DNA of 54,354 nucleotides. It comes from a virus. Taxonomy: Duplodnaviria; Heunggongvirae; Uroviricota; Caudoviricetes. How positions within the stretch are numbered: the stretch's first letter is position 1; each line of letters opens with the position of its first letter. Shown here in pieces: positions 40,268 to 44,902 of this stretch. Made by a program: the position numbers and the translations under genes. The stretch lies in IMG/VR virus record IMGVR_UViG_2541047692_000008, positions 1-54,354 of that record. One strand, given 5' to 3'. Below the pieces are notes generated by a model that worked only from the letters and a program-made list of their open reading frames with translations, ran no database searches and was not told the DNA's origin.

Positions 40268-42610
40268 ATGGCTACCAGTGTAGGTACAATTTATTACGAA
40301 GTTGATGCGAAAACTGGTCAACTTCTCGTTGCACAACGACAGGCAGACCAGGCCTTTGATCGTATAGAGCGCGGCGCAAAACAGGCTGACCGCCAGGTAA
40401 ACACCCTGAAAACATCCATCAAGGCACTGACCAGGGTTATCCATCTGCTAATTGCTGCGGAGGCTGTGCGCCAATTTATGGATATGGCGGAGCAAGCAAA
40501 AATGCTTCGCGTAAAAATCAAAATGCTTACGGGCGATACGGAGTCCGCCGGACGGGTTTTCGACGGCCTGAAAGCAATATCCAGGGAGACGGGGCAGAGC
40601 CTGAAAGATACTGGCGAATTATGGCAAGGCCTGGCTATCTCACTAAAAAACACCTCCGCTACGGAAGGGCAATTGCTTAACCTGGTTGGCACTATTCAGA
40701 AAATGGGTGCATTAGGCGGCGCGTCAGCGGAACAGATGTCTAACTCAATGCGTCAATTCCGTCAGTCTATCGACGGCGGTGTTCTTCGTGCCGAAGAATT
40801 TAACAGCCTGCTTGAAAATACGCCGACCATCGTACAAACAATGGCCCGCCATATGGGATTATCAATGGGCCAGTTCCGCGCCGAAATGCTGGACGGCAAG
40901 ATCACGGCTGAAAGGATGGTTAACGCAATACAGGCGGCTACGCAGGAAACAAACGATAAGTTTGCTCAGTTGCCGCGCACATCCGGCATGGCTATCAATG
41001 AGCTTAAAGTAGAAATTATGGGCCTTGTTGAGCAGTTGGATGATCTTTTTGGCGTGTCAGATGGCGTTGTTTCAGCTATCGACTTGATCACGAAAGGCGT
41101 TAAAGGGCTTGGCGATGGCGCTAAATTCGCTAAAACCTGCTTCGACACACTCAAAACGGCTGGTAGCGAATTTATCGACATGTTTGATGATGTGGCTGTT
41201 AAGGCTGGAGAGGTGGCAGAGAAGATCATCGCAATGGTGACGCCAATCAAGGCGCTAATGGATGGCTATAAATGGATGAAGGAGGTAGTAGGAGAGCAAA
41301 CCGACGAATATAACAGCAACTACGAGAAGAAATACGGGAAGACCGTTGGCAAGGTCATGCAACTACAGGATGATCTGACCGCAGCAATCCAGGCTACAGA
41401 AGAAGCAAGGAAAAATGAACAGAATGCTGCCAATGACGGAGCGATTACCGGATTCGACAAGCCAGTAGACAAGCCGAAAAAACAGAAAAAAGAGAAGAAA
41501 TCGGAAGCTGATCGGCTTGGTGACAAAGGTATAAGCGTTTCTGATCAGTACAACAAAGACGCCGCCGCCATGCGCAAAGCGTTGGAGAACGGCAAGGCCA
41601 TTGATGCTGCATTTGCCCAGGGTAAAATCACGCTCCTTGAGTACCGCGCCGCGCAAAAAGGGATCGGCAAGGAACTGAAAGAAGAATTAGCACAAATTCC
41701 GGTAGATGAATTGCGTGATAAATGGTCACAAATAGTAAGCCCGATGGATCAGCTAAAAGGCGAAGTTGACCCCATCCAGCAGGCGCAAAATGAATGGGCC
41801 ATCCGTAAGCAAATGCTTATAGACCTGGGCGCTACTGAAGCGCAACAGAAACAGGAATTGTTAGCCTATGAGCAACAGATCCGCGATCTGAAATGGGAAC
41901 AATGGCAGGCGCAAAGCGACACAAACGGCCTTATCGGTGATTGTGTTAATGGCCTTAAAGGCGGAATGAGTAATGCGCTTGTTGGCCTGTTAAACGGCAC
42001 TCAATCATTGAGTGATGTTTTTGCTAACTTAGGAAGCAATATACTCGGCAATATCGGTAACAGACTCTCAGACATAGCTGCAAACTGGATAGCAGATCAG
42101 ATCATGATGGAGACACAAAGCAAGGCCACGCAAACAAGTACAACAGCAAGCGCGGTAGCAGCTCAGGGAAGCATTGCTGCGGCGGCGGCCCCAGCAGCGG
42201 CGGCAACTGCGGCGTCAACTGGCGGTAGCTGGGCGGCGGCTGGTTCGGCGGCGCTCACTGCGATCATGTCGCTGGCTACGTCAATTTTCGGCGGCGGTCG
42301 CTTTAATGGTGGTAGCGTCATTGGTGGTAATATGTACCGCGTAGGGGAACACAACAGGCCGGAGCTATTCCAGACATCTAACGGCAATCAATATATGATC
42401 CCTGGCGAGAACGGCAGAGTTATTCCGGGCCGTGATATTGGCGGCGGTGGCGGTATTAGTATGCCTGTCAGTATCAGCATTCAGACCACGAACGGATTCA
42501 GCGACGAAGACAGCCGCAGACTTGAATTAACAATGGAACGTGTAGCCATGAAAATGATAACAAGGGAATCTCAAAGACCAGGCGGAATGTTGCAACCTCG
42601 CCGCAAATAA
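40268..42610 (+). CDS. Tail tape measure protein
   Basis: 780 aa; long alpha-helical protein with Gly/Ala-rich C-terminal segment; position upstream of lambda-like M, L, K, I, J. Confidence 0.85.
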   Translation: MATSVGTIYYEVDAKTGQLLVAQRQADQAFDRIERGAKQADRQVNTLKTSIKALTRVIHLLIAAEAVRQFMDMAEQAKMLRVKIKMLTGDTESAGRVFDGLKAISRETGQSLKDTGELWQGLAISLKNTSATEGQLLNLVGTIQKMGALGGASAEQMSNSMRQFRQSIDGGVLRAEEFNSLLENTPTIVQTMARHMGLSMGQFRAEMLDGKITAERMVNAIQAATQETNDKFAQLPRTSGMAINELKVEIMGLVEQLDDLFGVSDGVVSAIDLITKGVKGLGDGAKFAKTCFDTLKTAGSEFIDMFDDVAVKAGEVAEKIIAMVTPIKALMDGYKWMKEVVGEQTDEYNSNYEKKYGKTVGKVMQLQDDLTAAIQATEEARKNEQNAANDGAITGFDKPVDKPKKQKKEKKSEADRLGDKGISVSDQYNKDAAAMRKALENGKAIDAAFAQGKITLLEYRAAQKGIGKELKEELAQIPVDELRDKWSQIVSPMDQLKGEVDPIQQAQNEWAIRKQMLIDLGATEAQQKQELLAYEQQIRDLKWEQWQAQSDTNGLIGDCVNGLKGGMSNALVGLLNGTQSLSDVFANLGSNILGNIGNRLSDIAANWIADQIMMETQSKATQTSTTASAVAAQGSIAAAAAPAAAATAASTGGSWAAAGSAALTAIMSLATSIFGGGRFNGGSVIGGNMYRVGEHNRPELFQTSNGNQYMIPGENGRVIPGRDIGGGGGISMPVSISIQTTNGFSDEDSRRLELTMERVAMKMITRESQRPGGMLQPRRK

Positions 42611-42614
42611 ACTA

Positions 42615-42642
42615 AACCCCGGTGCAATGCCGGGGTTATTTT
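42615..42642. terminator. Stem-loop terminator after tape measure gene
   Basis: ccccgg-tgcaat-gccgggg followed by ttatttttcg. Confidence 0.55.
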
Positions 42643-42696
42643 TCGTATTTATAAACGACCATTCCGCGCGATATATCCCCTTTCGAATATCTCGAC

Positions 42697-42951
42697 TCAC
42701 TTATGAGTGCCTTTCACGCCACATAACTTGTTATAGGCATGGTGCTCAACAATTAACCAAACCTTCAAATCTTCGCTAAACAGCCTCCAATCAAGATTGA
42801 TATCCATTTTGTATCCGTAACCGTCGCGTAACTTTTTGGGGTAAACTTCTTTTCTCAGAAAGGCTTTAAGTAATTCCTTACCTTTCTTGATGATCCGGTC
42901 CTGTGCGTTTTTCTGTGCTTTCAGATTTCTGTCAATCGCTACCAGTTTCAT
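42697..42951 (-). CDS. Hypothetical protein (84 aa), possible RelE/YafQ-like toxin
   Basis: C-terminus ...DWRLFSEDLKVWLIVEHHAYNKLCGVKGTHK loosely resembles YafQ/RelE C-terminal pattern; second gene of a two-gene minus-strand cassette. Confidence 0.4.
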   Translation of the reverse strand: MKLVAIDRNLKAQKNAQDRIIKKGKELLKAFLRKEVYPKKLRDGYGYKMDINLDWRLFSEDLKVWLIVEHHAYNKLCGVKGTHK

Positions 42952-42968
42952 AACTCACCCCATCATCC

Positions 42969-43124
42969 TTAGTTAAGTGCCTTCAGGAAGAAGTCCCGGT
43001 ATTCATCTTCTTTCGCATTCATCATGAATTGACCGTATTTGAATGCGTCGTCGAAACCCTTAACGATTGCTATTTCCACTTGTTCGAATGCGTTATTTAG
43101 CATTACTACTACATAGCGTTTCAT
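42969..43124 (-). CDS. Small protein (51 aa), upstream partner of 42697..42951
   Basis: Hand-found; strong RBS aaggagg; MKRYVVVMLNNAFEQVEIAIVKGFDDAFKYGQFMMNAKEDEYRDFFLKALN. Confidence 0.4.
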   Translation of the reverse strand: MKRYVVVMLNNAFEQVEIAIVKGFDDAFKYGQFMMNAKEDEYRDFFLKALN

Positions 43125-43231
43125 TTTGGGCCTCCTTCGTTGGTACTACTTTCTTCTTGCTTTCTATATACATCTTGTTGCGTGCTATGTGAAGCCATTT
43201 TGTAAACTAGCTATAATCATTGTGACAATGA

Positions 43232-43261
43232 TCTTATTTTTCGCGTAGAAGCGCGTAAAGA
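43232..43261. promoter_or_regulatory. Conserved 30-mer (copy 2) upstream of tail gene M, with TATAAT nearby
   Basis: tcttatttttcgcgtagaagcgcgtaaaga; TATAAT at 43212-43217; flanked by ccattttgtaaac and tatacaaaatgtaac. Confidence 0.5.
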
Positions 43262-43291
43262 TATATACAAAATGTAACTTGTGGGGGTTTT

Positions 43292-43645
43292 ATGCCGGAA
43301 GTGTTCAGATGGACGCCGCAAAGAAGCTACAGCGTGACCAGGAAGCCAGACGTATCTGTTGTTAAGCTGGGCGATGGTTATGAGCAAAGACAGGTAAAAG
43401 GTATCAATCCATTGCTTGATAGCTACACCCTGGTGTTTAAAGGCAGTAGCGCCGGATGTGGTGATGGTGGAAACGTAGCAATCCAGGCGGAAGCATTCTT
43501 GAGGGCGCGCGGCGCGGTCGAGGCTTTTTACTGGTCGCCGTCAATGGATAACGTGCAAAGGCTTTTTGTCTGTCGGCAATGGAGCATGACTAAAGACGGG
43601 CCTTTGTACACGCTAAACGCAACGTTTGAGCAAGTTGTTGGCTAA
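43292..43645 (+). CDS. Minor tail protein M (lambda gpM-like)
   Basis: 117 aa; FRWTPQ..., GDGYEQRQ, C-terminal FEQVVG parallel lambda M as recalled. Confidence 0.8.
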   Translation: MPEVFRWTPQRSYSVTRKPDVSVVKLGDGYEQRQVKGINPLLDSYTLVFKGSSAGCGDGGNVAIQAEAFLRARGAVEAFYWSPSMDNVQRLFVCRQWSMTKDGPLYTLNATFEQVVG

Positions 43646-43842
43646 TGGGGGTTGTTATGTACGGGACTTGTGTAGTTGACAAAACTTACGCTTTTACATT
43701 GTTTGACGACTATGAGATCAACGACCTTACTGTAAAAGCTGACAACGGCGATATATGGTATCTTCACGACGTTGGTGATGGGTACGTTGGGTGTAGATCC
43801 CGGGAAGGGAAGGAGGTTTTATTTTTGGTTGATGGCGTATAA
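43645..43842 (+). CDS. Hypothetical small protein (65 aa)
   Basis: ORF inserted between M and L genes. Confidence 0.4.
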   Translation: MGVVMYGTCVVDKTYAFTLFDDYEINDLTVKADNGDIWYLHDVGDGYVGCRSREGKEVLFLVDGV

Positions 43843-43847
43843 ACACG

Positions 43848-43875
43848 ACCCCGCGCGAAGCGGGGTTATTTTTAT
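43848..43875 (+). terminator. Rho-independent terminator
   Basis: accccgcgc-gaa-gcggggt followed by tatttttatt. Confidence 0.55.
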
Positions 43876-43998
43876 TCTATTTCCATTAATGCTATATTTT
43901 CTGCTATCGTTTTCCAGTCCAGATCTACAGCATGAACGCCAAATACTATCAACCCCATTATTATTAGCGCCAAAACTTCTATTTTTATAATCAGTCAC

Positions 43999-44247
43999 CT
44001 ATAAGTTATCACGCAGATAATTAACGCCCTTATCAGTGACGAATGAATGGTTAACCTGGTTTTCATCCGTCATGATGATGAATAACTTTTCATGTAGGTA
44101 TTTCGCTTTCGGGTACAGCGTTAAACAGACCTGGTACAGTATCCCGCGCTCAATCAGCAAATCAATAAATTCGTGTTCATGATAACCGATGAGGCGGGCG
44201 GCCTGTTTCAACGTGTACACATAATCACCGTGATTGCGCCGCCCCAT
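43999..44247 (-). CDS. Putative HTH DNA-binding protein (82 aa)
   Basis: YTLKQAARLIGYHEHEFIDLLIERG helix-turn-helix-like segment; last gene of three-gene minus-strand cassette. Confidence 0.5.
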   Translation of the reverse strand: MGRRNHGDYVYTLKQAARLIGYHEHEFIDLLIERGILYQVCLTLYPKAKYLHEKLFIIMTDENQVNHSFVTDKGVNYLRDNL

Positions 44248-44256
44248 GTTGCCGCC

Positions 44257-44604
44257 TTATTTATCGAATGCTGAAAGGTTATCGATACAGAAATCTTTCG
44301 CCGCTTTTTCGTATTCGCGTTTTGCTTCTGGATCGTCAGCCGGGAAACCTTTTGCGTGTATTTCACCAGGGCAAGACTGGTCCATAGAATCTGCATAATA
44401 AGCAGTGAAGCTACCATTAATATCTTTCGGGTTCATATCTTCCACCTCATCAACTATCTGTACCGGATTAGCAGCATATTTCACTGGATGGCCTAAACTA
44501 CATTCAAGAATCCTGCCTTCTTCCAGGGCTACTTCTTCGCTATCAAATAATCCGAAACACTCCTTGCTACCACTTAACCACACATCAAGACTGTATTTTT
44601 TCAT
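44257..44604 (-). CDS. Hypothetical acidic protein (115 aa)
   Basis: Track ORF 44257..44706; ATG 44604 (MKKYSLDVW...) overlaps upstream gene end by 20 nt. Confidence 0.45.
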   Translation of the reverse strand: MKKYSLDVWLSGSKECFGLFDSEEVALEEGRILECSLGHPVKYAANPVQIVDEVEDMNPKDINGSFTAYYADSMDQSCPGEIHAKGFPADDPEAKREYEKAAKDFCIDNLSAFDK

Positions 44605-44773
44605 TTTTGTTAGCCTCATATTTGACAGGTTCGATCTGGTATCCCAAAAGGCGGTCATCCTCAGCAAGTAAAAGCGCGTCAACCAATGCTTCACCCTCGT
44701 CGTCATACAGGGCGATAACCTTTTCCCTACCGTCTGTCATGAATACCGTCAACTTCCATAGCTTTTCAGTCAT
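44585..44773 (-). CDS. Hypothetical small acidic protein (62 aa)
   Basis: Track ORF 44585..44893; ATG 44773 preceded by ggaggtg RBS; MTEKLWKLTVFMTDGREKVIALYDDEGEALVDALLLAEDDRLLGYQIEP... Confidence 0.5.
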   Translation of the reverse strand: MTEKLWKLTVFMTDGREKVIALYDDEGEALVDALLLAEDDRLLGYQIEPVKYEANKNEKIQS

Positions 44774-44868
44774 AACGCACCTCCGCGCCATTTTGTTAAC
44801 TATGCTTCCGTTTGAGTAAAATATACATATTGTAAAAACCGCGATCAATCCATTTTGGTATGATTTAG

Positions 44869-44884
44869 CGTGACGCAGATCACA
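44869..44884. promoter_or_regulatory. GTGA-N6-TCACA palindrome with GATC
   Basis: cgtgacgcagatcaca in the intergenic region between the minus-strand cassette and gene L. Confidence 0.35.
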
Positions 44885-44902
44885 GAATGACAAGGTGAGA
44901 AA

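Follow-up and report, generated by a model that had tools for sequence, protein, structure and literature searches.

The window analysed here, a stretch of 54,354 nucleotides (nt), represents a phage or prophage that falls into the mEp021/mEpimmI group, a temperate coliphage type, and carries among its tail genes a minus-strand cassette of two small genes encoding a protein of 51 amino acids (aa) and, downstream of it, a protein of 84 aa. The reading that we prefer, and to which we give a probability of about one half, is that the 84-aa protein is a phage-borne effector resembling RelE and YafQ, most probably an endoribonuclease, which needs no dedicated antitoxin and is carried on a moron. 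The cassette had initially been annotated as a possible toxin-antitoxin (TA) pair, and a classic pair of this kind is unlikely, because there are natural phages without the 51-aa partner and because partner-less relatives of the 84-aa protein occur in many other phages.

Of the two proteins, it is the 84-aa one that can be assigned to the RelE/ParE toxin superfamily. It matches PF24732 (ParE_like, "ParE-like toxin domain"), a Pfam family of small basic proteins, with 45.3 bits against a cutoff of 24.4 (E=9e-12), the match spanning profile positions 2-67 of 67, and all of its homologues, close and distant, likewise carry this domain. The protein is a member of phrog_1525 and already bears the RefSeq name "ParE family toxin-like protein". 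A hidden Markov model (HMM) search of 1.84 billion proteins gave only 10 at E<=1e-3, so that further members were gathered via a profile word search, and no paper mentioning PF24732 was found in the literature. Comparisons with characterised toxins at the sequence level were negative: a PDB sequence search with the protein or its profile gave no RelE/ParE match, NCBIfam and PADLOC left the protein unmatched, and hhalign returned no alignment between the family profile and the E. coli sequences of RelE and YafQ (the latter identical to PDB 4ML2). Because the PDB and hhalign comparisons gave nothing, the tie to RelE and YafQ is one of fold and Pfam family only. At these two levels the resemblance to RelE/YafQ-type toxins, which the initial annotation had called loose, is confirmed, the RNase branch of the superfamily being the nearer one.

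The fold comes from an AlphaFold2 (AF2) model built on an alignment of 18 sequences with identities down to 26% (predicted local distance difference test, pLDDT, 86.9; predicted template-modelling score, pTM, 0.74). The model has the topology beta(3-7)-beta(10-13)-alpha(18-32)-beta(47-50)-beta(55-59)-beta(65-69)-alpha(70-77) and describes a compact alpha/beta protein with an antiparallel sheet that can be superimposed on solved toxins of the RelE/ParE superfamily. The structures nearest to it all belong to active mRNA interferases, with HigB, YafQ, RelE and YoeB ranking above the ParE structures, and the top matches in BFVD are jumbo-phage proteins called "ParE-like toxin domain", with template-modelling (TM) scores of 0.7-0.8. 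On this model the 84-aa protein has a RelE/YafQ/HigB-like fold and lies closer to the RNase branch than to ParE. It shares the fold of the ribosome-dependent mRNA interferases RelE, YafQ, HigB and YoeB, but sequence similarity to them is undetectable, and the first helix of these toxins is replaced by a beta-hairpin in the model.

If one follows the Pfam name, the protein would be a ParE-type poison of DNA gyrase, which we regard as very improbable. ParE, the toxin of ParDE, does belong to the same superfamily, but its structures obtain lower scores than the RNase branch, and its architecture opens with an N-terminal two-helix hairpin, whereas the model begins with a beta-hairpin, which is followed by a single helix and, after the sheet, by a C-terminal helix. 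A ParD-like partner of the ribbon-helix-helix (RHH) type is absent here, and for one family member an HHpred annotation made independently indicates YafQ.

The conserved residues are of interest for the question of whether the protein is a nuclease at all. In the 18-sequence alignment every sequence has K40, L41, R56 and H70, almost every one has K23 and N74, and position 73 of the PF24732 family is Y or F. Read by eye, K40, R56, H70 and position 73 fall at R61, R81 and Y87 of RelE and at H87 and F91 of YafQ; since hhalign gave no alignment, this correspondence to RelE and YafQ is a judgement of the eye. The protein might have kept the RelE fold and act as something other than a nuclease, that is, as a ribosome- or protein-binding factor such as a decoy or an anti-defence protein, and phages could therefore carry it without an antitoxin. 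The tolerance of the 84-aa protein without its 51-aa partner would agree with this, as would the many lytic phages with a PF24732 gene in their early or accessory regions, the undetectable sequence similarity to the catalytic RelE/YafQ families and the lack of conservation, in the same by-eye reading, of the equivalents of RelE K52 and K54. We nevertheless consider a non-nuclease improbable, as the invariance of K40, R56 and H70 down to 26% identity is what one expects of a catalytic or RNA-binding site and the nearest structural neighbours are without exception active mRNA interferases.

The 51-aa protein is real, strongly conserved, probably co-transcribed and specific to this phage group, to which all of its homologues found are confined. 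It is acidic, hydrophobic and rich in aromatic residues, and its sole family match is phrog_29810, a family of unknown function. Neither the single sequence nor its profile gave a match in Pfam (E<=1), NCBIfam, PADLOC or PDB, and no antitoxin family was recognised, whether RHH, helix-turn-helix (HTH), Phd/YefM, AbrB or any other known one. The HMM search for toxin and antitoxin families that had been proposed for the pair thus recovered the 84-aa protein, through PF24732 ParE_like, and no antitoxin family for its partner. Neither protein showed a close relative in 185,579 species-representative genomes, which were scanned in two pattern-limited searches. The 51-aa sequence is identical in 20 of 49 loci, and the proportion of nonsynonymous differences (pN) is 0.053 for the 51-aa gene versus 0.123 for the 84-aa gene. 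In the usual TA pattern the antitoxin is less conserved than the toxin; the pattern seen here is the reverse.

Part of the evidence for our reading comes from natural variants, in which the 51-aa gene has been lost in two independent events. In the first, the 51-aa gene has been cleanly deleted, and the first ribosome-binding site (RBS) region now runs directly into the ATG of the 84-aa gene. This deletion is carried by E. coli UMNK88 and by two IMG/VR contigs (L030, L033), which have since diverged from each other; these loci still have the promoter-like sequence, and their 84-aa protein is unremarkable. The second event is a stop codon in the 51-aa gene (Q32stop), present in four genome-scale contigs (L107 and three similar ones), whose 84-aa protein is 100% identical to that of five loci with an intact 51-aa gene. 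Intact genes for the presumed toxin, which in a TA module should not occur without the antitoxin, are thus found without it in UMNK88, L030, L033, L107 and the three contigs similar to L107. A lysogen can carry an intact 84-aa gene, linked to its promoter, in the absence of the 51-aa protein. A locus with the 51-aa gene only, the 84-aa gene being wholly gone, was not seen among the loci compared. The same 51-aa sequence is found together with 84-aa variants that are 67-100% identical, the identity correlation being r=0.13; judged by their sequences, there is no partner-specific co-evolution between the two proteins.

Several observations weigh against this reading and have to be set beside the canonical type II TA module, in which the acidic 51-aa protein would bind and neutralise an 84-aa toxin and might autoregulate the promoter, and which would serve to stabilise the prophage or to abort infection by other phages upon decay of the labile antitoxin. 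The two genes stand in the textbook order, with the small acidic product (predicted pI 5.1) first, the basic toxin-fold product (pI 9.9) second, a gap of 17 nt between them and the stronger RBS in front of the first; co-oriented small genes with such a gap, a common promoter region and one terminator are the operon layout of a type II module. The 84-aa protein is, after all, in a toxin superfamily, and about 95% of the loci hold both genes (43 of 45 IMG/VR contigs and 33 of the 35 complete E. coli genomes with related cassettes). A perfect 17-bp palindrome lies upstream of the promoter in the window's lineage. Truncations of the 84-aa protein are fairly common in databases (about 11 protein clusters), and in Ecol_244 the 84-aa gene is frameshifted next to an intact 51-aa gene; truncated and frameshifted genes of this sort fit the decay of a toxin gene. 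In the Q32stop allele a restart at Met34/35 could yield the C-terminal 18 residues. Chromosomal modules of RelE type do not always kill the cell upon loss of their antitoxin, and the TA reading is therefore weakened rather than refuted by the partner-less variants.

We still judge the canonical module to be unlikely, if clearly not negligible. Both natural knock-outs of the 51-aa gene retain a wild-type 84-aa gene and its promoter. The supposed antitoxin matches no antitoxin or DNA-binding family; it has only 51 aa, is hydrophobic and aromatic-rich, not disordered-looking, and is more conserved than the putative toxin. Partner-specific covariation is absent, the palindrome is not conserved in relatives, members of the family in other phages have neither an adjoining 51-aa homologue nor an annotated antitoxin, and neither protein is in PADLOC. 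For the initially proposed TA-like pair there is support in the toxin superfamily of the 84-aa protein, the operon layout and the opposite charges of the two products; what is not supported is a 51-aa antitoxin that the 84-aa protein needs, given the missing family, the natural losses and the solo relatives.

Members of PF24732, these solo relatives among them, were found only on phage or prophage DNA and on a few unclassified metagenomic contigs, and their neighbours vary between contexts. In early regions of the T7 type the PF24732 gene adjoins a gp0.4-like gene, and it also occurs directly upstream of the phage RNA polymerase; a jumbo-type member (P0109) matches 70 phage records, mostly genomes of >300 kb. 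In Klebsiella phage Muenster the gene is inside the terminal repeat, near a kinase gene, and its GenBank annotation reads "putative YafQ-like ribonuclease toxin", the annotators having obtained an HHpred match to YafQ (4MMG, 97.7%). An HK97-like Serratia phage has the gene next to a ParB-like gene, and further settings are Kosakonia phage Kc237 and other arrays of small open reading frames (ORFs). Among the distant members whose flanks were compared, no 51-aa homologue and no annotated antitoxin adjoins the gene, and phmmer found no protein like the 51-aa one among the neighbours in metagenomic loci (E>0.3). As far as this survey goes, PF24732 has the look of a branch of the RelE superfamily that is carried by phages and often lacks a partner. 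A wider version of our reading can be put forward only tentatively: PF24732 may comprise minimal RNases of RelE/YafQ fold that phages of many kinds use without antitoxins, in the first minutes of infection in lytic phages (jumbo and T7-like) and from a moron in temperate ones, the 51-aa protein of the mEp021 group being a new small, folded and non-essential modulator of such an RNase. The family would then be a widely distributed equivalent of T4 RegB in function.

Some details of these settings can be noted in passing. The terminal-repeat PF24732 gene lies within a run of small genes in two contigs (L105 2001-3517, which is Muenster, and L006 3001-3853). One or two genes downstream of the PF24732 gene, jumbo phages have a gene for a putative protein kinase, and in two jumbo-type contigs (L006, L010) a similar protein of 116-118 aa is encoded upstream of it.

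Since the ratio of nonsynonymous to synonymous substitution rates (dN/dS) over some 50 related loci is 0.072 for the 51-aa frame and 0.086 for the 84-aa frame (30 and 37 distinct DNA sequences, respectively), while the two shifted frames of the same loci give 1.1-2.4, both ORFs are, by this test of their sequences, genuine genes. They are short, at 51 and 84 aa, and run opposite to the late operon, as chance frames in an intergenic spacer might, but in-frame values of 0.07-0.09 against off-frame values >1 refute this explanation, to which we attach practically no weight; both proteins also match PHROG families, the 84-aa protein a Pfam family as well, and the genes come with a strong RBS and a terminator. 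The layout described earlier is borne out, in that a 51-aa ORF with a strong AAGGAGG RBS is followed by an 84-aa ORF, both on the minus strand and opposite to the plus-strand tail genes on either side. The spacing given for them, 18 nt, needs correction, as 17 nt separate the TAA of the first ORF from the ATG of the second (42952-42968). An 8-bp perfect inverted repeat (CGCATTCA / TGAATGCG, 18 nt apart, 43014-43047) within the 51-aa coding sequence is probably due to chance or forms an mRNA hairpin.

The cassette has, to judge from the DNA, the anatomy of a moron: it lies on the opposite strand, is low in GC (0.37-0.42 vs about 0.50 in the flanking tail genes, with the GC skew reversed across it), ends at a terminator, is preceded by a conserved promoter-like TTCACA-N17-TATATA and carries variable cargo. 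A promoter of sigma-70 type probably drives both genes. Across 37 distinct promoter sequences of related phages, its cores TTCAC and TGTATA do not vary; a consensus promoter scan did not report the candidate, because its -10 element lacks the final T. At the other end, the intrinsic terminator sits between the stop of the tape-measure gene (42610) and the end of the 84-aa gene and serves both. The cassette had been described as flanked by terminator hairpins, and this applies to the downstream side (42615-42637); the upstream hairpin CGCGcttctaCGCG (~43240-43258) has a stem of 4 bp, lacks a T-tract, is missing from the calls of the scan and was rejected as a terminator.

The palindrome upstream of the promoter (43216-43232) might be an operator. 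It is perfect only in the window's lineage, and the relatives checked by eye pair 4-5 of 8 arm positions. With such degeneration in related phages, it was rejected as a generally conserved operator.

Relatives have 0-3 extra genes downstream of the 84-aa gene. The window holds the minimal two-gene version and relatives hold larger ones; the downstream end of the cassette is therefore a spot of cargo exchange. Extra small genes, one to three in number, between the 84-aa gene and the terminator are seen in contigs L001 (1584-2918), L002 (2499-2786), L003 (2579-3005) and L014 (1995-2383); a zinc-ribbon protein in mEp021 is one example of such cargo. The coordinates of the cassette and its borders are collected in Table 1.

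Table 1. Features of the two-gene cassette and its borders, in window positions.
Feature	Position	Strand	Remarks
Tape-measure gene	40268-42610	+	On one side of the cassette
Bidirectional intrinsic terminator	42615-42637	both	Stem AACCCCGG...CCGGGGTT, T-runs on each strand; inverted repeat I2
84-aa gene	42697-42951	-	From ORF list and sequence; C-terminus ...DWRLFSEDLKVWLIVEHHAYNKLCGVKGTHK
Shine-Dalgarno-like site of the 84-aa gene	42954-42961	-	GGGGTGAG; the weaker site, within the 17-nt intergenic gap
51-aa gene	42969-43124	-	From ORF list and sequence
Shine-Dalgarno site of the 51-aa gene	43131-43137	-	AAGGAGG, 6 nt before the ATG at 43124
Candidate -10 element	43165-43170	-	TATATA, preceded by TG (TGTATATA), 17 nt from the -35; putative
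Candidate -35 element	43188-43193	-	TTCACA; read from the sequence, putative
Perfect 17-bp palindrome	43216-43232	both	ATCATTGTcACAATGAT; ~25 bp upstream of the candidate -35; unique in the window
Minor tail gene, lambda M-like (Pfam Phage_min_tail)	43292-43645	+	On the other side of the cassette

How the cassette might work can be outlined from these elements. Inside the late (tail) operon the moron would be transcribed independently from its own promoter, ending at the bidirectional terminator, and in the prophage this promoter may express the 84-aa protein, with modulation of the host or exclusion of other phages as the possible outcome. The target of the protein would be the ribosome or mRNA, on which it would act as an endoribonuclease, and at the native level of expression it may work without a dedicated antitoxin, as T4 RegB does. 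The 51-aa protein would then be an optional modulator, tempering or assisting the 84-aa protein, or an unrelated passenger. In lytic growth, late transcription would presumably keep the cassette silent, while lytic relatives would use their PF24732 protein early in infection.

T4 RegB, a phage endoribonuclease that acts early and on mRNA, has a fold like those of RelE and YoeB and no known antitoxin (PMC3014915). We see in it the best functional analogy for the partner-less members of PF24732 in lytic phages. RelE-type modules differ in that the 51-aa protein encoded upstream is unlike RelB, DinJ, YefM or HigA and is dispensable in nature; PF24732, by contrast, was found here on phage-type DNA only. 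As to the genomic arrangement, Tai of phi80 is encoded on the opposite strand within the late operon, in what has been called a "non-contiguous operon" (PMC11364771). With the morons of HK97 gp15 and phi80 Tai our cassette has in common the position on the opposite strand in the late structural operon, its own (here putative) promoter and terminator, a deviant GC content and cargo that varies among relatives, but HK97 gp15 and phi80 Tai are unrelated to the proteins of the cassette, which has no known defence phenotype and no PADLOC match.

If our reading is true, a prophage gene of toxin fold together with a small ORF cannot automatically be counted as a TA or abortive-infection module, and phages would have recruited part of the RelE superfamily as effectors that act on their own. 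Should the pair prove to be a TA module, the 51-aa protein would define a new family of antitoxins and rank with the smallest ones. On both readings the advance is incremental, as the 84-aa protein had already been named by RefSeq and Pfam, and no new principle is demonstrated. The partner-less alleles (the UMNK88-type deletion and Q32stop) and the homologues of lytic phages are ready material for work on the role of such RelE-like proteins and on their tolerance by lysogens.

The genome in which the cassette lies is of mEp021 type, seemingly complete and about 54 kb long (window 1-54354). No tRNA genes were found in it, and no Rfam family reached the gathering score in the cassette or in the whole window. 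The region 42640-43291, used as query, is 100% identical to prophages of three human E. coli isolates, M1/5, FAH and MS 21-1, and the DNA identity of the cassette region to mEp554, mEp021, mEp013 and MagusPhagus is 82-93%. Related cassettes are present in 35 of 5,426 complete E. coli genomes, in every case as a single copy. The paper on the mEpimmI genome mentions neither of the cassette genes.

Beyond the cassette, the minor tail gene is directly followed by a 65-aa ORF on the plus strand (43645-43842), whose ATG overlaps the preceding stop codon. It matches phrog_3249 (E=1.5e-22), a family of unknown function; the annotations of mEp021, mEp554 and MagusPhagus give it as hypothetical. A second minus-strand moron (43847-44893) lies nearby, between the M-like and L-like tail genes. 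It encodes an acidic 62-aa protein (phrog_29559, ~44585-44773), a protein of ~115 aa (phrog_38567, within the ORF 44257-44706) and an 82-aa KilAC/ANT-domain protein (43999-44247). No homology was found between the 51-aa protein and the product of the first gene of this second moron. The promoter-like site of the latter (44848-44820) has TGTATAT, as in the cassette, and a bidirectional terminator is present at 43847-43867. This second moron is kept in all relatives, with varying content.
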